Notes: generated by a model from the letters alone, not told the origin. Counted from the stretch's first letter, positions 31,369 through 44,811 are shown. The stretch is DNA of 64,000 nucleotides from Phycisphaeraceae bacterium (GCA_963674705.1 OY771506.1:2176001-2240000); one strand, 5' to 3'. Numbers and translations: made by a program.

Positions 31369-31376
31369 TTTGGATT

Positions 31377-31550
31377 AACCACAGAGGCACAGAGACACAG
31401 AGTAAAACAAGAATATGGAACAGGGATGCACGCGGATGAACACAGATAATACGATAAAACGTGTGCGAGCGGCCTCTTCCTATCCGTATTTATCTGTGTT
31501 CATCCCTGTTAATGAATTGGTTTTCTCTGTGCCTCTGTGTCTCTGTGGTT
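31377..31550. repeat. Nested inverted-repeat cassette A (empty)
   Basis: Outer arms at 31377-31402 and 31525-31550 (8-nt CACAGAGR unit). Inner arms at 31419-31448 and 31481-31510 (10-nt ATRAACACRG unit). Confidence 0.9.
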
Positions 31551-31569
31551 CAATTAGAATGGCAAGGAT

Positions 31570-33039
31570 ATGACCCAGACAGACACACCCAAGCTGAACT
31601 TTGATACCGACTGGTCCTACGAGCCTGCGCCTGAATCGGTGCCGGTGCAGATTGATGACCGGTACGGTTTATTTATTGATGGCAAGTTTGTTGAGCCTGC
31701 GGAAGGCAAATACTTCGACACGATCAATCCCGCCAACCGTAATCGTCTTGCTGAAGTTGCTGAAGCAAGCGACGCGGATGTTGACAAAGCTGTCAAAGCC
31801 GCACGCAAAGCCTACGACAATGTCTGGTCGAAGATGCCCGCTGCCGATCGCGGCAAGTATCTGTATCGCATCGCTCGCATCCTCCAGGAGCGTGCCCGTG
31901 AGTTTGCGGTGATCGAAACGATGGATGGCGGCAAGCCTATCCGTGAATCGCGCGATATCGATATCCCGCTCGTTGCGGCCCACTTCTTCTATTACGCAGG
32001 ATGGGCGGACAAACTCGAATACGCTTTCCCGGGTAGGACCCCTAAGCCGATCGGCGTGTGCGGGCAGGTGATCCCGTGGAACTTCCCGCTGCTGATGGCC
32101 GCGTGGAAACTCGCCCCCGCGCTGGCTTGCGGCAACACGGTGGTTTTGAAGCCCGCCGAGACCACGCCGCTGACCGCGCTCAAGCTCGCTGAATTGATAC
32201 GTGATGCTGAATTGCCCGTGGGCGTCGTCAACATCGTCACCGGCGCGGGCGCGACCGGCGCTGCCGTTGTCAATCATCCGGACGTTGACAAGGTCGCTTT
32301 CACCGGCTCGACCGAGGTCGGCAAAACGATCCTCAAATCCATCGCAGGCAGTAATAAAAAATACACGATGGAACTCGGCGGTAAAGCCGCGAACCTGATC
32401 TTTGAAGATGCGCCGATCGACCAGGCTGTCGAAGGCATCATCAACGGTATCTTCTTTAATCAAGGGCACGTCTGCTGTGCGGGCTCGCGACTGTTCGTGC
32501 AGGAATCCGTCGCAGACACCGTTATTCGCAAACTCAAGGACCGCATCCAAACGCTTATCGTCGGTGACCCGCTTGATAAAAACACCGACATCGGCGCGAT
32601 CAACTCCAAGCCGCAGCTCGAAAAGATCGAGTACTACCTCAAGGTCGGCAAGGACGAGGGCGCAAAACTCTGGCAGCCCGATACTGCTCTTCCGACCGAA
32701 GGTTTCTTCTGTAAGCCCACGCTGTTCCTTGATGCAAGCCAGTCCCACCGCATCGTGCAGGAGGAGATCTTCGGCCCGGTGCTGGCTGTGCAAACCTTCC
32801 GCACGCCTGAAGAGGGCATCGCCAAAGCTAATAACACACCCTACGGCCTGTCCGGCGGCGTGTGGACCGACAAGGGCTCCAAGATATTCAAAGTCACCAA
32901 CAAGATCCGGGCCGGCGTCCTCTGGGCCAACACCTACAACAAGTTCGACCCGACTTCCCCCTTCGGCGGCTACAAAGAATCCGGCATGGGCCGCGAAGGC
33001 GGATTACATGGGCTGAAGGAATATGTATCACTGAACTAA
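31570..33039 (+). CDS. Aldehyde dehydrogenase (catalytic chain; probably acetaldehyde from DeoC)
   Basis: IPWNFPL, LKPAETTP, FTGSTEVG, MELGGK, FFNQGHVCCAG (catalytic Cys), EEIFGPV and PFGGYKESG. Confidence 0.93.
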   Translation: MTQTDTPKLNFDTDWSYEPAPESVPVQIDDRYGLFIDGKFVEPAEGKYFDTINPANRNRLAEVAEASDADVDKAVKAARKAYDNVWSKMPAADRGKYLYRIARILQERAREFAVIETMDGGKPIRESRDIDIPLVAAHFFYYAGWADKLEYAFPGRTPKPIGVCGQVIPWNFPLLMAAWKLAPALACGNTVVLKPAETTPLTALKLAELIRDAELPVGVVNIVTGAGATGAAVVNHPDVDKVAFTGSTEVGKTILKSIAGSNKKYTMELGGKAANLIFEDAPIDQAVEGIINGIFFNQGHVCCAGSRLFVQESVADTVIRKLKDRIQTLIVGDPLDKNTDIGAINSKPQLEKIEYYLKVGKDEGAKLWQPDTALPTEGFFCKPTLFLDASQSHRIVQEEIFGPVLAVQTFRTPEEGIAKANNTPYGLSGGVWTDKGSKIFKVTNKIRAGVLWANTYNKFDPTSPFGGYKESGMGREGGLHGLKEYVSLN

Positions 33040-33044
33040 GAAGA

Positions 33045-33199
33045 TATTCACCGCAGAGAACACAGAGATCGCAGAGAAGAATCATCGGAAATAGAAACAG
33101 GGATGAACACAGATGGACACAGATAAGACATGAGACAATAGAAGTGCAGATAAGTATTGTTTTTTTTTATCCGTGTTTATCTGTGTTCATACCTGTTTC
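33045..33199. repeat. Inverted-repeat cassette B (inner hairpin plus an orphan outer left arm)
   Basis: Outer left arm at 33045-33076 (9-nt CRCAGAGAW unit). Inner arms GAAACAGGGATGAACACAGATGGACACAGATAA (33094-33126) and its partner at 33167-33199. Confidence 0.88.
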
Positions 33200-33221
33200 A
33201 AACTGCATGAAGAGAATTGAT

Positions 33222-34130
33222 ATGAATCCCACGCAATCAGAATCTCAGACTTCCCCGGCCATCGACGCTTCACCGCGCCTTGGTGTGCTCAAGACGTACA
33301 AACTCTACATCGGCGGCAAGTTTCCGCGCACCGAGTCGGGCAGGTTTTATAAACTCACTTCAAGTTCGGGTGAGGTGCTTGCCAACATGTGTCAGGCCTC
33401 GCGCAAGGACTTTCGTGAAGCGGTCGTTGCTGCACGGGCGGCGCAGTCCGGTTGGTCGGGGGCGACGGCTTATCTTCGTGGACAGATCCTTTACCGCATC
33501 GCTGAGATGCTTGAAGGGCGGGCGAGTCAGTTCGCCACTGAGTTGATCCAGATGGGCGCCGAACCCGAGGCGGCGAGGGCCGAGGTCGCTTGTGCGATCG
33601 ATCGGTTGGTCTACTACGCGGGCTGGTGTGACAAGTATCAGCAGGTCTTCAGCAGTGTGAATCCGGTCGCATCCAGCCACTTCAACTTTTCGTTGCCCGA
33701 GCCGACGGGAGTTGTTTCCGTCATCGGGCCGGAGAAGAACGGCCTCATCGGTTTGATCTCCGTCATCGCCCCGATCATCGCTGCGGGCAATACCTGTGTC
33801 GCGCTTGCCTCGCAGAGTAAAGCCCTTTGCGCGATCACACTCGCTGAAGTATTGCACACCTCCGATTTGCCGGGTGGTGTTGTCAATCTGCTTACGGGTG
33901 ATCGTGACGAACTACTCGAACACTTCGCCTCCCACATGGATGTGAACGCCACGGTTTACTGCGGCAGCGATGCGGACCAGATCGAGCGGTTACGCACACA
34001 CGCCGCCGACAACCTCAAGCGCGTGATCACTAACAAGTGCACCGACTGGATCTCGCCCGACGCCCAGAGCCCCTACGAGATGCTCAACACCGTCGAAGTT
34101 AAAACCACCTGGCATCCGATCGGGATGTAA
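33222..34130 (+). CDS. Truncated aldehyde dehydrogenase-like protein (NAD-binding-like part only, no catalytic domain)
   Basis: KTYKLYIGGKFPRTESGR, RGQILYRIAE, YYAGWCDK and LPGGVVNLLTG. It ends KTTWHPIGM with no ELGG or catalytic-Cys segment. Confidence 0.85.
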   Translation: MNPTQSESQTSPAIDASPRLGVLKTYKLYIGGKFPRTESGRFYKLTSSSGEVLANMCQASRKDFREAVVAARAAQSGWSGATAYLRGQILYRIAEMLEGRASQFATELIQMGAEPEAARAEVACAIDRLVYYAGWCDKYQQVFSSVNPVASSHFNFSLPEPTGVVSVIGPEKNGLIGLISVIAPIIAAGNTCVALASQSKALCAITLAEVLHTSDLPGGVVNLLTGDRDELLEHFASHMDVNATVYCGSDADQIERLRTHAADNLKRVITNKCTDWISPDAQSPYEMLNTVEVKTTWHPIGM

Positions 34131-34135
34131 ATCGG

Positions 34136-34325
34136 ATTCACCGCGGAGAGCGCAGAGAACGCGGAGTAAGACAAGACATGTAACAGGGATGAACACAGAT
34201 AAGCACGGATCAGAAGATAATAGATAGTAATACTTCCGCCGCTTTAATTGTTTTCATCTGTGTCCATCCGTGTTCATCCCTGTTCCAAATTCTTCTCCGC
34301 GACCTCCGCGTCCTCTGCGGTGAAT
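34136..34325. repeat. Nested inverted-repeat cassette C (empty)
   Basis: Outer arms at 34136-34166 and 34295-34325 (9-nt CGCRGAG-containing unit). Inner arms at 34182-34210 and 34256-34284. Confidence 0.9.
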
Positions 34326-34341
34326 AGATAGAATAGCCATC

Positions 34342-35178
34342 ATGACCACCAAGCTCCTGCAAGTCGGCCCGGTTTCGATCGGCCCTGGTAAACCGTTAGC
34401 CATCATCGCCGGCCCATGCCAGGCCGAGTCGCTTTCGCTTTGCATGGAAGTCGGTAAAGCCATGCGCGACCGCTGCGCTGAGCTTGGGCTTGGTTTCATC
34501 TTCAAAGCCAGTTTCGACAAAGCGAACCGCAGCTCCATCCACACCGATCGTGGCCCCGGTATCACTGCCGGCCTGGATATGCTCGCGAAGGTGCGCGATG
34601 AACTGAACATCCCGATCACCACCGACCTGCACGAACCCGATCAGGCAAAAGCGGTAGGGCAGGTCGTCGACCTGATCCAGATCCCCGCGTTCCTGTGTCG
34701 GCAGACCGACCTGCTTGTCGCCGCGGCGAACACCGGCAAGGCTGTCAACGTCAAAAAGGGCCAGTTCATGTCGCCCGCCGAGATGGGCCACGTCGTCACG
34801 AAGTTGAACGAAGCGAATGCTTCCGGGGTGATGTTGACCGAGCGCGGCACGTTCTTCGGCTACCACCGCCTCGTCAACGACTTCGCCGGGCTTTATGACA
34901 TGATGCAACTCGGCCCGCCCGTCTGTTTTGATGTCACCCACTCCACCCAGCAACCCGGTGCAGCTCCCGATGGCAAATCCACCGGCGGCCGCCCCGACAC
35001 CGCCCCGACGCTGGCGCGGTGCGCGATCGCCGCCGGCGTCCACTGCCTCTTCATCGAAACCCACCCCGAGCCGACCAAAGCCAAGTCCGACGCCGCGACG
35101 ATGCTTCCGTTGGAGCAGATGTTGGGTTTGTTGGGGGAGTTGGCTGAACTGCATCAAGTGATACAAATACCCCGCTAG
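34342..35178 (+). CDS. kdsA: 3-deoxy-D-manno-octulosonate 8-phosphate synthase
   Basis: IAGPC, FKASFDKANRSS, QIPAFLCRQTDL, VNVKKGQF, TERGT, FDVTHS and FIETHP. Confidence 0.95.
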   Translation: MTTKLLQVGPVSIGPGKPLAIIAGPCQAESLSLCMEVGKAMRDRCAELGLGFIFKASFDKANRSSIHTDRGPGITAGLDMLAKVRDELNIPITTDLHEPDQAKAVGQVVDLIQIPAFLCRQTDLLVAAANTGKAVNVKKGQFMSPAEMGHVVTKLNEANASGVMLTERGTFFGYHRLVNDFAGLYDMMQLGPPVCFDVTHSTQQPGAAPDGKSTGGRPDTAPTLARCAIAAGVHCLFIETHPEPTKAKSDAATMLPLEQMLGLLGELAELHQVIQIPR

Positions 35179-35257
35179 GATGGGGGGACTTATTAGACGG
35201 GCCATCTTGGCCCGGTGGTGAGTATTTGTGTCGCAAGGCAGTAGTGAGGACTCGCAT

Positions 35258-35881
35258 ATGACCAACGACGCATTCTGGGAAATCATCGGACGAACAAAAT
35301 CGGCATCCGCCGGTGAACTCGAGGCGCAACTCGAAGCGATCAAGATCGAGCTTTCGGGTTTGCCTGAGTCAGAAGTCGTTGAGTTCGATAGGATATTCGG
35401 CGAGCTCAAGGATCGCGCTTATCACTGGGATCTCTGGGGTGCAGCTTACATCATCGGTGGTGGTTGTTCGGACGACGCTTTCATGGACTTTCGAAACTGG
35501 CTGATCTCGATGGGACGTGACGTGTATGAAAACGCGCTGGCCGACGTCGAAACCTTGGCTGATCTTGAGATCGGTGACGACTCCTTCTTCGAGGAATTAG
35601 CTTATGTGGCGAGCGAGGTCTATGAGCAGAAGACCGGCGGTGACATTCCATACTTACCGCATGACTTCCCGGTCGACCCGGTGGGCGAGCCGTGGGAAGA
35701 GAAGGGTGACGAACTTGAACGACGTTTCCCACGTCTTTGGGCGAAGTTTGTGACATCTGAACCAAAGCGTCATATAACACCCCGTCAGAATGGCGAGGCT
35801 ATAGAAAAGCCGGGCCGTTCTGGCCCATTCTCGCGGACAATTTGCGCGGTTTTCCACTGGTTAAACAAACCCTTTGAATAA
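35258..35881 (+). CDS. DUF4240-like protein
   Basis: FWEII, WDLWGAAYIIGGGCSDDAFMDFRNWLISMG and FPRLWAKF; ATG at 35258 after GAGGA. Confidence 0.8.
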   Translation: MTNDAFWEIIGRTKSASAGELEAQLEAIKIELSGLPESEVVEFDRIFGELKDRAYHWDLWGAAYIIGGGCSDDAFMDFRNWLISMGRDVYENALADVETLADLEIGDDSFFEELAYVASEVYEQKTGGDIPYLPHDFPVDPVGEPWEEKGDELERRFPRLWAKFVTSEPKRHITPRQNGEAIEKPGRSGPFSRTICAVFHWLNKPFE

Positions 35882-36087
35882 CCCCGGTGGTACCGGTTTA
35901 CCTACCGTCTCCTCGCCTGATAGCAGACCACGGCAGGTTATTCAATGGCCTCACACGTCTATTCCGTCTGAAATCACGATTCTGCGGGATTTTTGGAACA
36001 TCCGCCCCATTCTCGTCGTCTTATCTATGTCTGGGCCCCTTTGGGCGATAAGATGTTGTGGATCAGTAACTCATCAGGAGCCGGCCG

Positions 36088-37977
36088 ATGAATACCGTAC
36101 ACCTTGCGATCGCCCGAACGCGTCGCCGCATCTTCGCCGATACCTGGCTGCGGACACTCGGCTGGATGGCGCTGGTCTGGGTCGGCCTAGCGGTCCTGGT
36201 GCTGGTAGCCGACAAGCTCTTTGCGCTGCGGGTCCCGGTCGATCAGGCATGGATTTACGGCAGCCTCGGCGGGATTCTTTTTATCCTCGCCCCCGTCCTC
36301 GCCTCGACACGTCAGCCAGTCGAATCCATTGCCGCCACGATGATGGACGACAGGCTTGGTCTGAAGGACAGTCTCGGCACCGCGCTCTACGCTGAATCTA
36401 TTAAGGATGACCCGTTTGCCAAACAGGTGCTGGCCGATGCCGAGCGGTTGGCATCCAAAACGCGCGTCAATGAAGCGTTTCCCATCCGGCTGGGTACGGG
36501 TTGGAGCTATGCCCTCGCCGGGGGGGCGATCTTTGCGTTGATGGCGGTATTTCTGCCGGAGGGCGATCTATTCGGGATCGAAGGGAAGCAGGAACAAAAA
36601 CAGCAGCAGCTTGCCGAGGCCGAGCAGGTCCAGCGGCAGGTGCTCGAAGCCAACGCGATCCTGCGTGAGGTCGAAACCTCCGAATCCAAACTGGTTGAAG
36701 CCAACCCGGACGATATCTACAAGGAACTGGCCTCCATCACCAAGCGTGACCTGACCAATCCTGACTTCCGTAAGGAAGCGATCACCAAGCTCGCGACCAT
36801 TCAGGAGAAGCTGGCGGTTGCTGAGAAGAACAAGAAACAGGAGATCAAGACCGCCAAGAACAATATGACCAAACTCGATCCCGGCAAGCGAGGCCCGGCC
36901 GACCGCTTCGCCGACGCCATGCGTCGCGGCGACTTCGAGCAAGCTAAAAAGGAATTGCAACGCCTCGCCGACGGCCTGCAAGGGATGCCCGAATCCGAGA
37001 AGCAAGCGCTTAAGGATCAGCTTGAGGCCATGTCCGATCAACTGGACCAAATGGCTGAGCAGCAGAAGCAGGCCCAGCAGCAGGCGCAGCAAAACATCCA
37101 GCAGCAACTGCAAAACGCAGGCCTGACTCAAAATCAGATTCAGCAACTGCAACAGCAAGGCTACAACCAGCAGGCTGTGCAGCAGGCGGTACAACAGTCC
37201 TTGCAGAATCAAGGCATGAATCAGCAGCAGGCCCAGCAACAAGCACAACAGACCGCTCAAAACGTCAGCCAGCAGCAACAGCAATCGCAGAACGCCGCCC
37301 AGTCCCAGTCACAGTGTCAGGGCATGGGCTCGGGGCTCGGTCAGATGGCATCATCCCTAGGCGGTTCGCAGCCCGGCCAAAATGGGCAGAACAGTCAAAA
37401 TAACCCGGGCCAGCAAGGCCAGTTCTCTCAAGGCGCATGGCAGGCTCAGCAGCAGCTCAACCAGCTCCAGCAGATGCAGAACCAGCTCAACCAGATGCAG
37501 AACGCCCAGCAGCAGATGCAGCAGGCGATGTCGCAGTGCCAGGGTATGGGGCAAAATCAAGGGCAGGGCATGGGGCAAAACCCGGGCCAAGGCCAAGGCA
37601 GCAATTCCGGCCAAAACCAGACCGGCAATCCAAACACCCAGAACAATAGTGTCGGCGGACGTATGGGCGGCAGCGGCGGTAACAACCAGGTTCTAGGCGT
37701 CGAACGCCAGACCGCGCCTTACAGCACATCAACCGAACAAGATATCCAGCAGGGCCAGGGCCGTGTCATCGCCAGTTGGCAGGAGAACGGCCAGATGGTG
37801 GCCGGCGAAGCGACCGTCGAATTCGACAAGACCATGACCGAGGCCCGCAACGATGCCGAACGCGCCATCACTGACGACCGCGTTCCCCGCAGGTATCACA
37901 ATGCTGTGAAAGACTACTTCCAGCAGATGCCCACGTTAGACGAAGTCCAAAAGGCCCCCGCCGCGCCACGGGGGTGA
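36088..37977 (+). CDS. Membrane-anchored coiled-coil protein with a long Q/N/G-rich region (MoxR/VWA operon)
   Basis: N-terminal TM helices, DDRLGLKDSLGTAL, a Q-rich segment and a C-terminal VPRRYHNAVKDYF. Confidence 0.82.
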   Translation: MNTVHLAIARTRRRIFADTWLRTLGWMALVWVGLAVLVLVADKLFALRVPVDQAWIYGSLGGILFILAPVLASTRQPVESIAATMMDDRLGLKDSLGTALYAESIKDDPFAKQVLADAERLASKTRVNEAFPIRLGTGWSYALAGGAIFALMAVFLPEGDLFGIEGKQEQKQQQLAEAEQVQRQVLEANAILREVETSESKLVEANPDDIYKELASITKRDLTNPDFRKEAITKLATIQEKLAVAEKNKKQEIKTAKNNMTKLDPGKRGPADRFADAMRRGDFEQAKKELQRLADGLQGMPESEKQALKDQLEAMSDQLDQMAEQQKQAQQQAQQNIQQQLQNAGLTQNQIQQLQQQGYNQQAVQQAVQQSLQNQGMNQQQAQQQAQQTAQNVSQQQQQSQNAAQSQSQCQGMGSGLGQMASSLGGSQPGQNGQNSQNNPGQQGQFSQGAWQAQQQLNQLQQMQNQLNQMQNAQQQMQQAMSQCQGMGQNQGQGMGQNPGQGQGSNSGQNQTGNPNTQNNSVGGRMGGSGGNNQVLGVERQTAPYSTSTEQDIQQGQGRVIASWQENGQMVAGEATVEFDKTMTEARNDAERAITDDRVPRRYHNAVKDYFQQMPTLDEVQKAPAAPRG

Positions 37978-38189
37978 TCTCGGGTATCGGTATTCGGGTC
38001 TCGGGTCTTGCAACAGGGGACACAATCATTCTGGGTAACGAATCTGTGATAAGAGAGAAAAAGATGTTTGGTGCGGTAAGTCAGCACATATCCCAAAGCA
38101 CGTGTATGACTTGCTCATATGACATACGATGGGGTAACGAAAGTCGTAACCCGATACCCGAAACCCGAAACCCGAATCCCGATCAGTGA
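37974..38189. mobile_element. Heptamer-arm inverted-repeat cassette D flanked by GTGA direct repeats
   Basis: Left arm TGATCTCGGGTATCGGTATTCGGGTCTCGGGT (37975-38006). Right arm ACCCGATACCCGAAACCCGAAACCCGAATCCCGATCA (38149-38185). GTGA occurs at 37974-37977 and 38186-38189. Mobility is inferred. Confidence 0.65.
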
Positions 38190-41100
38190 ACTTCATCCGT
38201 TTCGATCAACCCGAGTACCTTTGGCTGCTGCTTTTGGCGGTGCCGATTGCCTGGCTTGGGATGCGCAGCCTTGCGGCGCTTGAGCCGGCCCGGCGGTGGA
38301 CCGCGATCGTACTGCGGCTGCTGGTGCTCGCCGTCCTGGTTCTCATGCTCGCCGGCCTGCAGGCGGTTCAGACGCATGACGACCTGACCGTCATCGCGGT
38401 GATGGATCAATCCGAATCCGTACGCCGATTCGCCAAGCCGCCGACCGAACTCAACGGCACGGAAGATGATGTAAACGACATCAGCCAGTGGGCACGTGAA
38501 TACCTCAAGCAGACTGCGGCCGACCGGCGCGATGGCGATCAACTCGGGCTCGTGACTTACGACGGCAAATCCAGCGTCCGCTCGCTACCCAGCGAAGCGA
38601 CCGACCTCGACACCGGCACGATCGATCAGCCCAACGAAGGCACCGACACCGCCAGCGCGATCCGCTCCGGCATGGCTTTGTTCCCGCCGGATTCAGGCCA
38701 GCGCATGGTCCTGTTTTCCGATGGCAACGACACTTCGGGCGACGTCATCGCCGCAGCACAGGAAGCTGCTGCCGCGGGTATCCGCATCGACGTGTTGCCC
38801 GCACCGTACCAGGTCGAGCATGAGGTCATGGTTGAGCGTTTGATCGCTCCCAATGAAGCTCGCGAAGGCCAGACCGTTCCCGTCCGTGTCGTCCTGCGTG
38901 CCACTCGACCGGCCGACGGCTTCATCCAGCTATCGCACGATGATGTGTTCATCGACCTAAATGGCGCACTGGAAGGCACAGGCGCACCGGTCTACAAGTC
39001 CGACTGGACGCTTGAAGAGACCAGTCAGACGGAAAACTCAACCGATGATCCAACGGTAGAAGATACGAACACCGTCGACGAACCCATGCTCGGTAAATAC
39101 ATCACCGTCCGCGAAGTGGACGTGCCGATGGGATTCACCGGCGTCAACAAGTTCCGCGCGATCTTCGAGACATCCGATGAAGACGACACGATGCAGATCA
39201 ACAACCAGGCCGAGGCGTTCACGCTTGTCTCCGGCAAGGGGCGCATCCTCTTTGTAGATAACGTCGGCGGCGAGTCGGGCAGCATCCTCCCACGCGCTCT
39301 TGCCAGCCGGGGTATCGAGATGGACGTCGTCGGCCCGGAGGGCGTACCCATCTCACTCGATCGGATGCAGCGTTACGACGCGATCATCCTCCAGAACGTG
39401 CCTTACGACCAGGTCATCGCACAGCAGCGCCTGATGGCCAAGTACGTGCATGATCTTGGTGGCGGCCTGATTATGCTCGGCGGGCCCGACAGCTTCGGTG
39501 CAGGCGGCTGGACCAATTCCGAAATCGATAAATACATCCTTCCGGTCAGTTGTCAGATCCCCTCGCAGACGATCCTGCCTTCCGGCGCATTGGCGCTGGT
39601 AATCGACCGTTCCGGCTCTATGGCCGCACCCGTCGGCGGCACAATGCGAACGCAGCAGGAGCTTGCCAATGAGGCGGCCGTCCTCGCGCTGAACACGCTG
39701 TATCCGCAAGACCTGATCTGTGTGATCGCGTTTGACGGAAGCGCTCACATGATCGTCAAAACGCAGCCAAACACCGACCCCGTCGCCGTCGCCAAGAAAG
39801 TACGCAGCATCCAGCCCGGCGGCGGCACGGAAAGTTACTACGGCCTGGAGATGGCCTATAAGGAACTGGCGCCCCTGACCGTGCAGGATGCCGCCGTCAA
39901 GCATGTCATCATGCTGACGGATGGTATGAGCGGCGAATCCATCACCGGCGGGTACGTCAAAATGCTCGGCTTGATGAACAAGCAAGGCATCACACTTTCC
40001 ACCATCGGTGTCGGTGATGGGCACAACTCTCAACTACTTAAACAATTGGCCAGCATGGGAAGCGGTAACTACCACCCCATCACCAACCCTTCAAACCTGC
40101 CGCAGGTCTTCATTAAAGAAGCCAAGACCATCCGCAAGAACCTGGTTAAAGAAAACCCATTTACCCCGACGGTGCAACCTACCGGCTCGCCGATCATGGC
40201 AAGCATCAGCAGCGTTCCTGAACTGCGCGGCCTGGTGTTGACCGGCGAAAAACACGACCCGCGCATCCTCATGCCCATGGTCGGACCCGAAGGTGAACCT
40301 GTATTCGCACACTGGCAGGTCGGCCTCGGACGTAGCGCCGCGTTCACCTCCGATGCGACCAACCGCTGGGCCACGCAATGGCTATCGTGGGGCGGCTACC
40401 CCGACTTCTGGGCACGCACCGTCCGCAGCATCGCGCGCCCAAGCGCCTCGCGCGATACCGACCTGATCGTGGGCATCAGCGATGGGCAATTGAATATCCA
40501 ACTCGATGCCGCGTTCGAATCCTCGCAAACAACCGGCAACCGCAGGCAACGTGCCGGCAGCTTCGGCAACTTCCTCGACGTTAAAGGCAGCGTTCTCAAG
40601 CCTGATGGCACCGTCGAACAGGTCGCGCTCGATCAGATCGGCCCGGGCCAGTACCGTGCAAACGTCCCCGCCGGCCAGACCGGCAACTACGTCGTCAGTC
40701 TCTTCATCGAATCGCCCGATGGATCTAGGCGTGCTGTCTTTGGCGGCGCGGGTAAACCGCCCGGCGAAGAGTTGCGCCGCTTCAAATCCAACAACGCCGT
40801 CCTCGAACGCATCGCCGAAATCACCAACGGTCGCGTCCTCGACCCGACCCAGCCCCAGACCGCAGGCCTCTTCGAACGCAACGTGCCTTTTGAAACACGT
40901 TCGATCCGCCCGCTTTGGCGCACGTTGTTGCTTTGGCTGGTCATCTTCTTCATGCTCGATGTCGCCTGCCGCCGCATCGCTTGGGATCCAGTCGCCATCT
41001 GGGAGTGGAGCAAGCAGCGTGTCGATTCGCTGCTTGGCACACTCAAGCCGCGCGAGGTCGAAGTAGAGACCACCCTCGCCGCGCTAAAGAACCGTCAGGC

Positions 41101-41401
41101 ACAAACCGAACAACAACTCGCCGATCGTGCAGCGGGTGTGCGCCTGACCAAGGTCGCAAGCGAACCCGCCGTCCCCGCACCGTCTACCAAGCGCAAGTTT
41201 GAAGCATCCGAGGACTTCGTCGCTTCCAGCAACTTTGCCGAATCCGTAGGCGGCGCGACCGACAACCCGAATTCAGCTTACGCATTGAATGACAAGCAAT
41301 CCGATGGCGACACGGCCGAAGGCGAAGGCATGACCACCAGCCGCCTCCTCGCCGCCAGGCGTCGCGCCCGGGAGCAGATGAATGATGAGAAAGGCAAATA
41401 G
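38186..41401 (+). CDS. Membrane protein with two VWA domains and a glutamine-amidotransferase-like domain
   Basis: DQSES and DRSGSM MIDAS motifs; SDGN and TDG; LIMLGGPDSFGAGGW; WQVGLGRSAAFTSD. Confidence 0.85.
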   Translation: MNFIRFDQPEYLWLLLLAVPIAWLGMRSLAALEPARRWTAIVLRLLVLAVLVLMLAGLQAVQTHDDLTVIAVMDQSESVRRFAKPPTELNGTEDDVNDISQWAREYLKQTAADRRDGDQLGLVTYDGKSSVRSLPSEATDLDTGTIDQPNEGTDTASAIRSGMALFPPDSGQRMVLFSDGNDTSGDVIAAAQEAAAAGIRIDVLPAPYQVEHEVMVERLIAPNEAREGQTVPVRVVLRATRPADGFIQLSHDDVFIDLNGALEGTGAPVYKSDWTLEETSQTENSTDDPTVEDTNTVDEPMLGKYITVREVDVPMGFTGVNKFRAIFETSDEDDTMQINNQAEAFTLVSGKGRILFVDNVGGESGSILPRALASRGIEMDVVGPEGVPISLDRMQRYDAIILQNVPYDQVIAQQRLMAKYVHDLGGGLIMLGGPDSFGAGGWTNSEIDKYILPVSCQIPSQTILPSGALALVIDRSGSMAAPVGGTMRTQQELANEAAVLALNTLYPQDLICVIAFDGSAHMIVKTQPNTDPVAVAKKVRSIQPGGGTESYYGLEMAYKELAPLTVQDAAVKHVIMLTDGMSGESITGGYVKMLGLMNKQGITLSTIGVGDGHNSQLLKQLASMGSGNYHPITNPSNLPQVFIKEAKTIRKNLVKENPFTPTVQPTGSPIMASISSVPELRGLVLTGEKHDPRILMPMVGPEGEPVFAHWQVGLGRSAAFTSDATNRWATQWLSWGGYPDFWARTVRSIARPSASRDTDLIVGISDGQLNIQLDAAFESSQTTGNRRQRAGSFGNFLDVKGSVLKPDGTVEQVALDQIGPGQYRANVPAGQTGNYVVSLFIESPDGSRRAVFGGAGKPPGEELRRFKSNNAVLERIAEITNGRVLDPTQPQTAGLFERNVPFETRSIRPLWRTLLLWLVIFFMLDVACRRIAWDPVAIWEWSKQRVDSLLGTLKPREVEVETTLAALKNRQAQTEQQLADRAAGVRLTKVASEPAVPAPSTKRKFEASEDFVASSNFAESVGGATDNPNSAYALNDKQSDGDTAEGEGMTTSRLLAARRRAREQMNDEKGK

Positions 41402-41847
41402 CCACCGATGAACACAGATGAACACAGATTGGATGCGGGGGCTGTGGTTGACCATGATGCGTTGACTGAACGCATTATTGGTTGCGCGATGGCTGTGAGC
41501 AATAGTCTGGGGGTGGGTTTTCTGGAGAAGGTGTACGAGAACGCCTTGGTTTTGGAATTGCGTGCGGATGGCTTGAGTGTTAACCAGCAAACGCCGGTAC
41601 ATGTGTGGTATCGCGATGAAGTGGTAGGGGACTTTGTTGCGGACTTGATTGTAGAGAACAAGGTATTGATTGAATTAAAACACTCGGATGGTATCCACCC
41701 GGTTCATGTCGCACAATGTCTCAACTACCTGCAAGCCACAAAACACAAAACCTGCCTTCTCTTAAACTTTGGCACAACTAAACTGGGCATCAAACGTATA
41801 TCACTATAAACCTCTTATCTGTGTTTATCAGTGTTCATCGGTGGCTA
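41399..41847 (+). mobile_element. Inverted-repeat cassette E carrying a GxxExxY gene
   Basis: 31-bp arms TAGCCACCGATGAACACAGATGAACACAGAT (41399-41429) and its partner at 41817-41847, with 2 differences, enclose the gene. Mobility is inferred. Confidence 0.7.
41408..41809 (+). CDS. GxxExxY protein (PD-(D/E)XK nuclease-like)
   Basis: LGVGFLEKVYENAL, ADLIVENKVLIELK, AQCLNYL and LLLNFG. The ATG lies inside the left repeat arm (MNTDEHR). Confidence 0.9.
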   Translation: MNTDEHRLDAGAVVDHDALTERIIGCAMAVSNSLGVGFLEKVYENALVLELRADGLSVNQQTPVHVWYRDEVVGDFVADLIVENKVLIELKHSDGIHPVHVAQCLNYLQATKHKTCLLLNFGTTKLGIKRISL

Positions 41848-41873
41848 AATTCTGCCACAAGGAGTGAATAATC

Positions 41874-42911
41874 ATGACCGTTAATACCAACGACGAGCAG
41901 CAGGTCCTTGAGCAGGCCGATGCATTCCGTAAAGACTACCAGGCTGTGCGCGAGCAGATAGCACGCTGGATCGTCGGCCATGGCGACATCATCGACGGCG
42001 TCCTGACCTGCCTGTTCGTCGGCGGACACGCGCTGCTCGAAGGTGTGCCCGGCCTCGGTAAAACGCTGTTGATCCGAAGCCTCAGCCAGGCGTTGTCGCT
42101 GGACTTCAGCCGTATCCAGTTCACGCCCGACCTCATGCCCGCCGACATCACCGGCACGACGATCGTCGTCGAGTCGCGCAATGAGGATGGCACGACCTCG
42201 CGCGTGTTCAAATTCCAGCACGGCCCGATCTTCGCTCAGATCGTGCTGGCTGACGAAGTCAACCGCGCGACACCCAAGACGCAGTCTGCCATGCTCGAAG
42301 CGATGCAGGAAAAAGCCGTCACTGTGGCCGGTGAAACCTACACGCTGCAAAAGCCCTTCTTTGTCATGGCAACACAGAACCCCATCGAGCAGGAAGGCAC
42401 ATACCCGCTGCCTGAAGCCCAACTCGACCGTTTCCTGCTCAAACTCGATGTCGGCTACTCTACCCGTGAAGAACTGCACGAAATCGCCAACCGCACCACA
42501 CGCGCTGAAGAACCCGTCATCGAGCCTGTGCTCGATGCTGCGAAGATCATCAACTATCAGAAGCTTATTCGCCGCGTCATCATCGCCCCGCACGTTCAGG
42601 ATTATGCGATCCGCGCTGTCCTCGCGACGCATCCGGACGGTGAATTTGCCGGCAAACTGACCAAACAGTTCCTGCGCTTCGGCGGCTCCCCCCGTGCCGT
42701 GCAGGCCCTTGTTCTCGGCGGAAAAGTCAGAGCGATGTTAGATGGCCGCGCCCACGTGTCTGTAGATGACATCAGAGCCATCATGCTCCCGGCGCTTAGA
42801 CACCGCGTCCTTCTGAACTTCGAAGGCCAAGCCGAAGGCATCACGCCGGACATGGTTCTGAACGACATCATCGACACACTGCCCGTGGAAGCCGAAGGCG
42901 TGCCGGTGTAG
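41874..42911 (+). CDS. MoxR family AAA+ ATPase
   Basis: GVPGLGKT (Walker A), RIQFTPDLMPADITG, LADEVNRA and ATQNPIEQEGTYPLPEAQLDRF. Confidence 0.95.
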   Translation: MTVNTNDEQQVLEQADAFRKDYQAVREQIARWIVGHGDIIDGVLTCLFVGGHALLEGVPGLGKTLLIRSLSQALSLDFSRIQFTPDLMPADITGTTIVVESRNEDGTTSRVFKFQHGPIFAQIVLADEVNRATPKTQSAMLEAMQEKAVTVAGETYTLQKPFFVMATQNPIEQEGTYPLPEAQLDRFLLKLDVGYSTREELHEIANRTTRAEEPVIEPVLDAAKIINYQKLIRRVIIAPHVQDYAIRAVLATHPDGEFAGKLTKQFLRFGGSPRAVQALVLGGKVRAMLDGRAHVSVDDIRAIMLPALRHRVLLNFEGQAEGITPDMVLNDIIDTLPVEAEGVPV

Positions 42912-42913
42912 GG

Positions 42914-43393
42914 AATGCACGAATGGCGAATGCTCGAATGTCGAAAGAATGACAAATGACGGAATGACAAATGAACGAGCGCTCGTATGACCTAGAGGAA
43001 CGAACAGCCAGGTTTGGTGAAAATATTATTGCCTTTGCCAAACGTGTAACGCTAAATGAGATAACGCGTCCCATTGTTGGGCAACTGGTACGATCTGGGA
43101 CGAGTGTGGGAGCTAATTACTGCGAGGCCGACGATGCGGAAACCAAAAAGGACTTTCGGCACAAGATCGCCATCTGCAAGAAGGAGTCCAGAGAAACAAA
43201 ACATTGGTTGCGTATGATTGTCACAGCAGAGCCTGTGTTGCGTGACGAAGCAAAAATATTATGGCAAGAAGCAAAAGAACTAAATTTGATCTTTGCATCC
43301 ATTCGCAACAGCACCGGAAGGCGATGAATGTGTCATTTGACATTGAATCATTCGACATTCTTTCGACATTCGAGCATTCATCATTCGTGCATT
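42914..43393 (+). mobile_element. Inverted-repeat cassette F carrying a four-helix-bundle gene
   Basis: 61-nt arms at 42914-42974 and 43333-43393, built of (G/A)AATG-containing 7-8-nt units, enclose the gene. Mobility is inferred. Confidence 0.7.
42971..43327 (+). CDS. Four helix bundle protein (23S rRNA intervening-sequence protein family)
   Basis: DLEERTARF, QLVRSGTSVGANYCEA, DFRHKIAICKKESRETKHWL and EAKELNLIF. Confidence 0.9.
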   Translation: MNERSYDLEERTARFGENIIAFAKRVTLNEITRPIVGQLVRSGTSVGANYCEADDAETKKDFRHKIAICKKESRETKHWLRMIVTAEPVLRDEAKILWQEAKELNLIFASIRNSTGRR

Positions 43394-43398
43394 AACTT

Positions 43399-44328
43399 AT
43401 GACCACCCTCAACTCCCAACCCGCCAAGCAGGACTCGCTCCTCGACCCCGCGTTCATGCATCGGCTTGATCGGCTGGATGTCATGTCGCGCAAGGTGCTG
43501 ACGGGCAAGATGCAGGGCGAGCGACGGAGCAAGAAGAAGGGGCAGAGTGTTGAGTTCGCGGACTATCGCAGTTACGTGATCGGCGACGATCTGCGGTTTA
43601 TCGACTGGAACCTCTATGCCAGGCTCGACAAACTTTTCTTACGCCTGTTTATGGAAGAGGAAGACCTGTCGGTGTCCGTCGTGCTGGATGTCACCGCTAG
43701 CATGGATTACGGCGATCCGAACAAGCTGCTCTATGCCAAGCGCGTCGCTGCGGCGTTGGGGTACATCGGACTGACGCATTACAACCGGGTGAACCTCTAC
43801 ACCTTTGCAGACACGATCACGGACATGGCCCAGGGCATGCGCGGCCGCCGACCCATCCCGCGCATGCTCGAGTTCCTGCAGATGCAGCAGCCCATCTCCG
43901 GCGAAGCTGCCAGCGGGAACCTTGCCAACGCATGCAAACGTCTCGCACTCGTCCAGCGACAGCCCGGCGTCATCATCATGCTCAGCGACTTTTTCGATAA
44001 GGGCGATCTCAACGAAGCCCTGCGTTACCTCGGCGGCGAGAAGCACGACGTCTACGCGATCCAACTGCTCTCCCCGCAAGAAGTCGACCCAGCTAAGGGC
44101 AACGTTCTCGGCGACCTGCGCCTTCGCGACATCGAGGACGGCGACATCGCCGAAGTCTCTGTGAGCCCGGCCCTGCTCAAACGATACAAAGCCAACCTCC
44201 AGGCTTACTGCCAGTTCGTCCGCGAACAGTGCCTGAAGCGCGGCGTCGCCTACATGATCAGCGAAACCGACGTGCCGTTTGATACGTTGGTGTTGAAGTA
44301 CTTACGTCAACGGGGATTGTTGGGATAA
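43399..44328 (+). CDS. DUF58 domain protein (MoxR partner)
   Basis: GQSVEFADYRSYVIGDDLRFIDWNLYAR, LDVTASM and LSDFFD. Confidence 0.92.
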   Translation: MTTLNSQPAKQDSLLDPAFMHRLDRLDVMSRKVLTGKMQGERRSKKKGQSVEFADYRSYVIGDDLRFIDWNLYARLDKLFLRLFMEEEDLSVSVVLDVTASMDYGDPNKLLYAKRVAAALGYIGLTHYNRVNLYTFADTITDMAQGMRGRRPIPRMLEFLQMQQPISGEAASGNLANACKRLALVQRQPGVIIMLSDFFDKGDLNEALRYLGGEKHDVYAIQLLSPQEVDPAKGNVLGDLRLRDIEDGDIAEVSVSPALLKRYKANLQAYCQFVREQCLKRGVAYMISETDVPFDTLVLKYLRQRGLLG

Positions 44329-44334
44329 GGATAT

Positions 44335-44796
44335 TGGAACAGGGATGAACACAGATAAACACGGATAAGATGAAGCGGGGGTATGTGTGGATCAATATCA
44401 TGAAATGACTGAGCAGATAATTGGTTGTGCGTATCGTGTCAGCAATACATTGGGATGTGGTTTTCTTGAGAAGGTATATGAAAATGCGTTGGTCTATGAG
44501 TTGAGTGAGTCAGAGCTTAAAGTTAGCCAGCAACAATCCATAGAAGTGAATTACGCGGCAATCGTTGTTGGGCACTACATTGCCGACATCGTGGTTGAAG
44601 AAAAAGTCATTATCGAGATAAAAGTGGCCAGTAAATTGGATGAAGTCCATGCAGCACAAACCATCAACTACCTTAAGGCGACCGGTTATCCGGTTGCACT
44701 TTTACTTAACTTCGGCAAACCAAAAATTGAGATCAGGCGTTTTGTCAACAAGTTCTAATTCTTTATCCGTGTCCATCCGTGTTCATCCCTGTTCCA
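44335..44796 (+). mobile_element. Inverted-repeat cassette G carrying a GxxExxY gene
   Basis: 34-bp arms TGGAACAGGGATGAACACAGATAAACACGGATAA (44335-44368) and its partner at 44763-44796. Same arm family as the inner hairpins of A, B and C. Mobility is inferred. Confidence 0.7.
44387..44758 (+). CDS. GxxExxY protein (PD-(D/E)XK nuclease-like)
   Basis: LGCGFLEKVYENAL, ADIVVEEKVIIEIK, AQTINYLKAT and LLLNFG. Confidence 0.9.
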   Translation: MDQYHEMTEQIIGCAYRVSNTLGCGFLEKVYENALVYELSESELKVSQQQSIEVNYAAIVVGHYIADIVVEEKVIIEIKVASKLDEVHAAQTINYLKATGYPVALLLNFGKPKIEIRRFVNKF

Positions 44797-44811
44797 TAAA
44801 TTGACTCAAAA

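Follow-up and report, generated by a model that had tools for sequence, protein, structure and literature searches.

Tandem-unit inverted arms around GxxExxY and four-helix-bundle genes in a Phycisphaeraceae bacterium: a likely family of small mobile DNA cassettes

In a stretch of 64,000 nucleotides (nt) from a Phycisphaeraceae bacterium (GCA_963674705.1 OY771506.1:2176001-2240000; hereafter the window, with positions counted from its first letter), every internal junction of two gene runs holds inverted arms built from short tandem units. Three of the seven junctions carry, between these arms, a gene of the GxxExxY or the four-helix-bundle (FHB) family. Arm-bounded cassettes of this kind are real and widespread, and they are likely an undescribed family of small mobile DNA cassettes. 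The two operons are dense instances of a genome-wide pattern and not a special locus. The evidence comes from the coupling between each protein lineage and its own arm sequence and from the turnover of cassettes at the same junctions in close relatives.

Arms at seven junctions of two gene runs

The first run consists of deoC, two aldehyde dehydrogenase genes (ald and ald') and kdsA, the second of a Q-rich gene, VWA, moxR, DUF58 and a batA-like gene. A first-pass annotation of the window had placed arms of short tandem units at all seven junctions (three of three and four of four). These were found again at matching positions, with units of 7-10 nt. The elements (J1 to J7) and their cargo genes are as follows.

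31377..31550: J1 (deoC-ald), empty and nested; outer arms of 8-nt units, 31377-31410/31517-31550, 30/34 paired
31419-31447/31482-31510: inner arms of J1, 10-nt units
33046..33076, + strand: orphan left arm of J2, 9-nt units (family D20), right partner absent
33094..33199: J2 (ald-ald'), empty hairpin; arms of 10-nt units, 33094-33126/33167-33199, 29/33 paired
34136..34325: J3 (ald'-kdsA), empty and nested; outer arms of 9-nt units, 34136-34166/34295-34325, 25/31 paired
34179-34215/34251-34287: inner arms of J3, 10-nt units, 29/37 paired
37980..38182: J4 (Q-rich gene-VWA), empty; arms of 7-nt units, 37980-38006/38149-38182; pairing extends into the upstream stop codon
41399..41847, + strand: J5 (VWA-moxR), loaded; arms of 10-nt units, 41399-41429/41817-41847, 29/31 paired
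41408..41809, + strand: GxxExxY gene 1 (in J5), 133 amino acids (aa); TIGR04256, PF13366
42914..43393, + strand: J6 (moxR-DUF58), loaded; 61-nt arms of 7-nt units, 42914-42974/43333-43393, 53/61 paired
42971..43327, + strand: FHB gene (in J6), 118 aa; TIGR02436, PF05635
44335..44796, + strand: J7 (DUF58-batA-like), loaded; arms of 10-nt units, 44335-44368/44763-44796, 31/34 paired
44387..44758, + strand: GxxExxY gene 2 (in J7), 123 aa; TIGR04256, PF13366

The annotated layout, with arms close to the flanking stop and start codons, holds in general. At J2, however, the arm beside the stop is unpartnered and the paired arms begin 54 nt past the stop. Furthermore, J1 and J3 each turned out to be two nested elements. 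The left arm of J5 overlaps both the upstream stop and the cargo start. All seven elements sit between protein genes and none lies in an rRNA gene. A search against Rfam returned merely weak miRNA-type hairpin matches far under the gathering scores, and counts of promoters and terminators within the cassettes were like those of shuffles (3 vs 6.5 and 19 vs 15.4, respectively).

The two GxxExxY proteins score 137.9 and 144.5 bits against TIGR04256 (cut-off 35), and the FHB protein scores 69.3 bits against TIGR02436 (cut-off 24). The GC contents of the three genes (0.47, 0.47 and 0.41) are 12-19 points lower than those of the neighbours (0.59-0.61). Family matches and base composition thus agree with the original description of three cassettes enclosing an AT-rich GxxExxY or FHB gene and four empty ones.

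Residues E28, Y31, D67, E77, K79 and Q91 are invariant in 101 of 101 aligned GxxExxY proteins. The structure model of GxxExxY gene 2 (predicted local distance difference test score, pLDDT, 95.4) has a predicted PD-(D/E)XK fold. Its top match in Foldseek was Cas4 SSO0001 (E 4e-4), and several PD-(D/E)XK folds reached Z 8.4-8.7; the Holliday-junction resolvase Hjc, with Z 6.9, scored no higher than other folds of this kind. Judged from the alignment and the model, GxxExxY retains a complete nuclease active site. The FHB protein of J6 is related to PDB entry 2RLD (E 4e-15), and PF05635 is called homologous to Avd in the accessible text of PMC10053308. Both families are catalogued without an assigned function; in the part of PMC3424549 available, PF13366 is tabled as 'Unknown' with many transfers.

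Some further features were noted in the window and nearby. A one-base shift in this genome and in the closest one, G004, puts the ATG used as the J7 cargo start in one relative (G003) out of frame (window 44383-44389), and the likely start is GTG. A DUF4240 gene lies between the two operons (35228-35881), and arms around it were not noted. Just upstream of the window and elsewhere (G000:C1:1426226, 2166021-2167297) there are several copies of a 30-nt AT-rich perfect palindrome that stands outside the arm families.

Arm families and their cargo genes

The 5.54-Mb genome encodes six FHB and three GxxExxY genes, of which five and three, respectively, are arm-bounded (8/9 in total). Among the cargo junctions elsewhere in the genome are those of what we take to be lepA, fabH-fabD and groEL-dnaJ. 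Inverted pairs detected de novo numbered 270, of which 114 are periodic, and served to define 16 arm families; the arms thus fall into at least 16 families. Such arms are present at 399 of 3315 junctions, about one in eight, with gene calls for this genome and for G004 taken from a simple caller of our own whose start positions are approximate. The 4.08 Mb of coding DNA contain 130 arm-family hits. The restriction to operon junctions that had first been supposed is not supported, since convergent junctions carry arms most often (88/469) and divergent ones also carry them (39/476), besides 272/2370 co-oriented junctions. Likewise, only 87 of 146 loci have their cargo in the orientation of both neighbours. 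The arms have a polarity: 759 of 941 are directed inward as seen from the nearer gene. Unmatched or stacked families are found at many junctions. The exact pattern of one 10-mer arm has 132 genome matches, and its reversed control has none.

For the link between genes and arms, 132 GxxExxY and 136 FHB loci were fetched, and 125 and 120 were kept after removing short flanks and duplicates; both sets are biased, as 80 of each are the nearest relatives of the window proteins. Arms were found at 103/125 GxxExxY and 96/120 FHB loci, and shuffled flanks reached the same score at 0/125 and 0/120. The median arm length is 31-32 nt, with periods of mostly 8-10 nt around GxxExxY and mostly 7 nt around FHB genes. 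The 90 GxxExxY loci located to junctions are spread over 77 distinct ones. Internal stops occur at 3/125 GxxExxY and 3/120 FHB loci. The ratio of nonsynonymous to synonymous change (pN/pS) is 0.12-0.34 in nine of nine cargo pairs, the synonymous sites of which are close to saturation. Five cargo loci are located on viral contigs.

Protein identity predicts arm similarity, with a Mantel rho of 0.39 (n=48) and 0.30 (n=51) at p 0.001, the nearest-relative loci having been subsampled to 12. The 10-mer arm is retained across phyla (62/80 loci with arms), and the arm and its protein clade recur together in Planctomycetota, Acidobacteriota, Pseudomonadota and others. Among 120 genomes of the phylum, it occurs in 20 of the 64 with GxxExxY and in none of the 56 without (Fisher p 7e-7). 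A loaded cognate exists for 15 of the 16 arm families in the genus and for 7 of the 16 in this genome, and loaded and empty elements have arms in common. That the arms are linked to the GxxExxY and FHB genes and not randomly placed is the outcome on which the first-pass annotation had made its proposal depend.

Several observations concern individual cargo genes and other repeats. In the GxxExxY gene after groEL (L229, G000:C1:2957870-2958297) there is an internal TAG, and the left arm falls within the reading frame; the same junction is also loaded in G003, G009 and G024. A set of armless FHB genes exists in the genus (G000:C1:3224184-3224501; L082, L081, L072, L069, L065, L066), at least one of them at the same site in G004, and these are possibly a domesticated lineage. 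Two more families of palindromes, in about 110-130 copies, occur across the genome nested with arms in repeated mosaic modules (for example at G000:C1:962638, 968504, 2420675, 784412).

Turnover among relatives and routes of movement

Orthologous junctions were compared in 10 same-genus and 6 other genomes with both flanking genes on one fetched stretch. At J1, G005 and G006 have a bare spacer of 32-33 nt, and G007 and G009 have other inner families. J2 holds a GxxExxY gene with other arms in G006 and both outer arms in G009. At J3, other families are found in G009, G007, G005 and G006, and no bare site occurs in the five relatives compared. Six further same-genus genomes carry 7-mer arms of several other units at J4, which is bare only outside the genus (G014, G016). 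J5 is a bare spacer of 49-51 nt in five same-genus genomes and holds another 10-mer family in G004 and G009. At J6 we found GxxExxY with other arms (G004, G009), a bare site (G008), empty hairpins (G010, G005) and an unrelated open reading frame (ORF; G007). J7 contains GxxExxY in G004, G009, G008, G003 and G001, an unrelated ORF in G010 and a 7-mer hairpin in G002, and is bare in G007, G005 and G006; its arms show compensatory changes relative to G009. The two unrelated ORFs, of 130 aa at J6 of G007 (L025:8805-9197, in an assembly with frameshift errors) and 113 aa at J7 of G010 (L026:9876-10217), are unmatched in Pfam and lie between 10-mer arms. Hence, instead of fixed and vertically inherited cassettes, which would have spoken against the initial proposal, the relatives show bare sites and cargo swaps.

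Turnover is also evident in the closest genome, G004 (median protein identity 96.9%). Four of its 13 GxxExxY/FHB genes are also present here, one of them armless, and nine differ: the orthologous site here is bare or holds nested empty arms, different cargo or a related gene between other arms. In 1.22 Mb of G004 picked for arm density, 161 of 716 orthologous junctions bear arms: 75 with the same families, 40 with partly the same, 33 in one genome only and 13 swapped, by regular-expression classes that are imperfect (J6 was scored as 'one only'). Four DNA contig sets over the region include one relative with another J6 insert. No clean excision joint was seen in these four sets, and shared arms account for most joints.

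One cassette of G004 was noted separately. In L076 (G004:C1:2602548-2605865) an FHB cassette is in frame with the next gene, which we take to be ispF-like, giving a 314-aa open frame with the right arm as linker. The site is bare in this genome (G000:C1:5337300-5337800), and an insertion sequence, presumably IS630-like, sits in the next arm downstream.

The edges of swapped junctions give some indication of how they arose. Over the last 16 codons before swapped junctions, synonymous change reaches 0.20-0.23, compared with 0.07-0.09 next to junctions that retain their families (p 4e-6 for the swapped and one-only classes together). Therefore, part of the turnover appears to be import from other lineages together with a few dozen flanking bases. 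No long co-conversion tracts were found at four-fold sites beyond 60 nt, and several swaps have clean edges with the flank unchanged. Terminal inverted repeats are present in the elements. Target-site duplication was not detected, as 5/95 elements have a flanking repeat of at least 5 nt at a null of 5.0%, although a 2-nt duplication would escape. The loops of 88 empty hairpins are AT-rich and mostly unique. In two cases, however, a pair of loops from different sites has almost the same sequence. Composite modules are likewise repeated at junctions that are not orthologous (457 pairs after filtering, the first two of which are probably orthologous). These repeats suggest that copying takes place within the genome.

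Our preferred explanation, held with moderate confidence, is a genome-wide set of mobile cassettes acting at the DNA level, in which each cargo protein is predicted to recognise the arms that enclose it, and arm-bounded segments would be moved by nuclease cuts together with host repair. A cargo protein would bind arms of its own family. GxxExxY would cut at or near arm hairpins or cruciforms, and host recombination repair would then write the arm-bounded segment into an intergenic gap or an existing element. Such a cut-and-repair route would lead to nesting, mosaics, capture of unrelated ORFs, absence of target duplication and sometimes a short donor flank. The FHB protein would serve as an Avd-like binding partner, dependent on a nuclease supplied in trans. 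Empty hairpins, which are in the majority, would be non-autonomous, in the same relation as REPINs (doublets of repetitive extragenic palindromic, REP, sequences) to RAYT (REP-associated tyrosine transposase).

Several points weigh against this explanation. Coupling between genes and arms is also expected from simple linkage, and kin are non-independent. For nine of the 16 arm families that are abundant here, the genome lacks a cognate gene. Blastx and blastn found no cargo remnants in the loops of the 88 empty hairpins, and the loops are mostly unique, so that the explanation does not account for the origin of the empty elements. Neither protein has a known activity, so that their action on arms is a prediction. 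Sequence search gave no solved relative of GxxExxY, the Atlas gave GxxExxY clusters only, and the FHB protein has no catalytic motif. Arm-free diverged spacers also reach 0.16-0.195 synonymous change, and the donor-flank signal is patchy, with 5/15 swapped gene ends over the threshold. The J7 cassette is common to six genomes of the genus, and some cassettes are therefore long-lived. Finally, Y1 transposases are present in 20/20 genomes with the 10-mer arm.

This last co-occurrence is expected if the arms are REP- or MITE-type (miniature inverted-repeat transposable element) ends moved in trans by an HUH tyrosine transposase (RAYT/IS200) or another transposase, with the cargo as passengers. 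The window has no Y1 transposase match, as had been annotated, but the genome has 14 (Y1_Tnp), several with their own palindromes. HUH chemistry fits the absence of target-site duplication, and unrelated ORFs between arms would be natural passengers. Nevertheless, we consider this origin improbable. Tandem arms flank not one of the 14 Y1 genes, and 29 genomes have, among the matches listed, Y1 but neither GxxExxY nor the 10-mer arm. Conversely, 8-mer arms with a cognate GxxExxY gene occur in G024 (100% complete, no Y1 candidate) and in G107 (90% complete and fragmented; no Y1 among the matches listed). Moreover, passengers are not expected to track arm sequence. RAYT genes were rejected as the cognate partner of the arms, because their flanks differ. 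The 14 Y1/RAYT-like matches, several with palindromic flanks, mark a genome with many parallel repeat-plus-gene systems.

About equally little credence is given to passive spread, in which the arms are repeats spread by slippage, gene conversion and homologous recombination between lineages, the arms have a host role (mRNA stability, translation or DNA structure) and the genes hitch-hike or serve the host. The two closest genomes differ in unit numbers, and long arrays occur. The synonymous rise in the last 16 codons is expected of imported DNA, and arm-free spacers behave similarly. Regulatory roles have been proposed for such heptamers in the available text of Rehm 2015 (PMC4692102) and MacGregor 2015 (PMC4679880). 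However, passive spread does not account for 16 separate families that have a fixed inward polarity and that each go with one protein clade in different phyla, nor for the invariant nuclease site and the colonisation of many unrelated junctions, and several swaps are clean-edged.

The first-pass annotation had proposed mRNA intervening sequences, whose insertion into operons would be nearly neutral. On this proposal the arms would be selected to pair in the transcript and would rejoin the flanking genes or form an RNase III site, and the cargo would act on RNA. Long stable stems are indeed predicted at 7/7 junctions, J6 being stem-bounded with a PF05635 gene. An arm pairs better with its own partner than with arms of its family from other loci (mean 24.4 vs 14.6, n=68), as also suggested by the compensatory changes at J7. 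Strand-symmetric DNA processes such as template switching can also yield matched arms, however. The genome encodes RNase III, which, as far as the accessible texts go, excises FHB-bearing intervening sequences from 23S rRNA (PMC4990558) and cuts Correia-element hairpins (PMC10969869).

Selection on a stem as RNA lets G-U mismatches pass but not A-C mismatches, and these were counted on the cargo sense strand. The G-U:A-C ratio is 94:95 in GxxExxY arms and 87:94 in FHB arms, so that mismatches are strand-symmetric; for 47 empty hairpins at co-oriented junctions it is 44:33 (p 0.25). The control, terminator-like stems of the same genome, has 69:8, although long stems weaken this test. In addition, convergent junctions are richer in arms than co-oriented ones, and many junctions carry unmatched families unable to pair. 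The mRNA proposal is thereby weakened and appears slightly less probable still than the two preceding alternatives; a role of the stems in RNA is made less probable by the G-U test. RNase III cutting of transcripts is likely a side effect: under the preferred cut-and-repair explanation, RNA hairpins and such cuts would be by-products, tolerated or used by the host.

A bolder form of that explanation is advanced only tentatively. There may be a transposase-free class of mobile DNA in which GxxExxY and FHB genes are the autonomous members and every lineage of these proteins reads its own tandem-unit arm; the nuclease would open intergenic DNA at arm hairpins, and repair would copy segments, with or without cargo, between junctions.

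The contributions new here are the map of turnover among close relatives, the matching, family by family, of empty arms with loaded cassettes, and the tests of co-occurrence and, against the RNA proposal, of G-U mismatches. The gene-arm link provides each protein with a candidate substrate, its own 30-nt arm, and concerns short-period intergenic repeats previously described without a source. If the proteins move the arms, mobility without transposase or integrase would reshape about one gene junction in eight here, by a route that can capture unrelated genes and fuse to host genes. If the transposase-free class is real, two very large orphan families would gain a function, and the cyanobacterial and Xanthomonas heptamers as well as ORF-bearing 23S rRNA intervening sequences would be footprints of one system.

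Relation to known systems

In the open literature, which leaves out most subscription papers, we found no paper that connects the GxxExxY or FHB family with tandem inverted arms on either side. A preprint on myRT names GxxExxY once in the available text, without bearing on this question, and PF05635 genes wedged within cas operons are mentioned in the accessible part of PMC3936711.

Free-standing homing endonucleases are small nuclease genes at conserved-gene junctions. As with these, the same junction is occupied repeatedly by related cassettes, flanking codons are changed in some swaps and the predicted active site is intact (GxxExxY only). In contrast to them, the present elements have arms and big empty populations, the flank tracts are short and patchy, and FHB lacks a nuclease motif. 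Homing is described in the accessible text of bioRxiv 2024.02.27.582315.

The arms resemble MITEs (Correia, ERIC; PMC10969869, as available) in being short intergenic inserts bounded by terminal inverted repeats, with transcripts cleavable by RNases. They differ in the absence of target-site duplication and of a common internal sequence among copies, and in having a cognate non-transposase gene. With the Avd proteins of diversity-generating retroelements (PMC10053308, in the portion available) there is homology through PF05635, but the single reverse transcriptase match of this genome is far from the window.

Intergenic heptamers come closer. The accessible texts report inverted GGGAATC heptamer pairs in Xanthomonas and GGGGA(C/T)T in Nostoc (Rehm 2015, PMC4692102) and TAACTGA repeats of Beggiatoaceae (MacGregor 2015, PMC4679880). 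Like the arms, these heptamers form 7-mer arrays between genes, are oriented to gene ends in the same way and often stand in inverted pairs, and one arm family here has a GGGATT-type unit. Both papers, in their available parts, interpret the heptamers as repeats that are regulatory or form G-quadruplexes. The main text of the former does not contain the words 'helix bundle', 'nuclease' and 'intervening', nor that of the latter 'four helix' and 'S23'.

ORF-bearing 23S rRNA intervening sequences (Coxiella S23p, PMC4990558; inserts of the candidate phyla radiation, bioRxiv 2024.02.27.582315) share with our cassettes, according to the accessible texts, a PF05635 gene in a stem-bounded insert and horizontal acquisition. 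Unlike them, the inserts described here are found at junctions of protein genes, whether co-oriented, convergent or divergent, and show no RNA-type pairing signature, and two thirds of the local cargo is GxxExxY.

The best analogy is with REPIN-RAYT (Bertels and Rainey 2011, PMC3337134). In the parts of that paper available, as here, there are hundreds of extragenic inverted doublets that form hairpins with mostly unique, variable spacers, several families per genome, each matching the repeats round its own small gene, and repeat mosaics; no target duplication was found in our elements. The arms differ in being direct tandem arrays of 7-10-nt units and not palindromes, and the partner is a PD-(D/E)XK nuclease or a four-helix bundle and not an HUH/Y1 transposase. 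RAYTs are described as single-copy and mostly vertically inherited, whereas the loaded cassettes turn over and cross phyla. By this analogy, the family may work like REPIN-RAYT, with a putatively intact PD-(D/E)XK nuclease or an Avd-like protein replacing the transposase.

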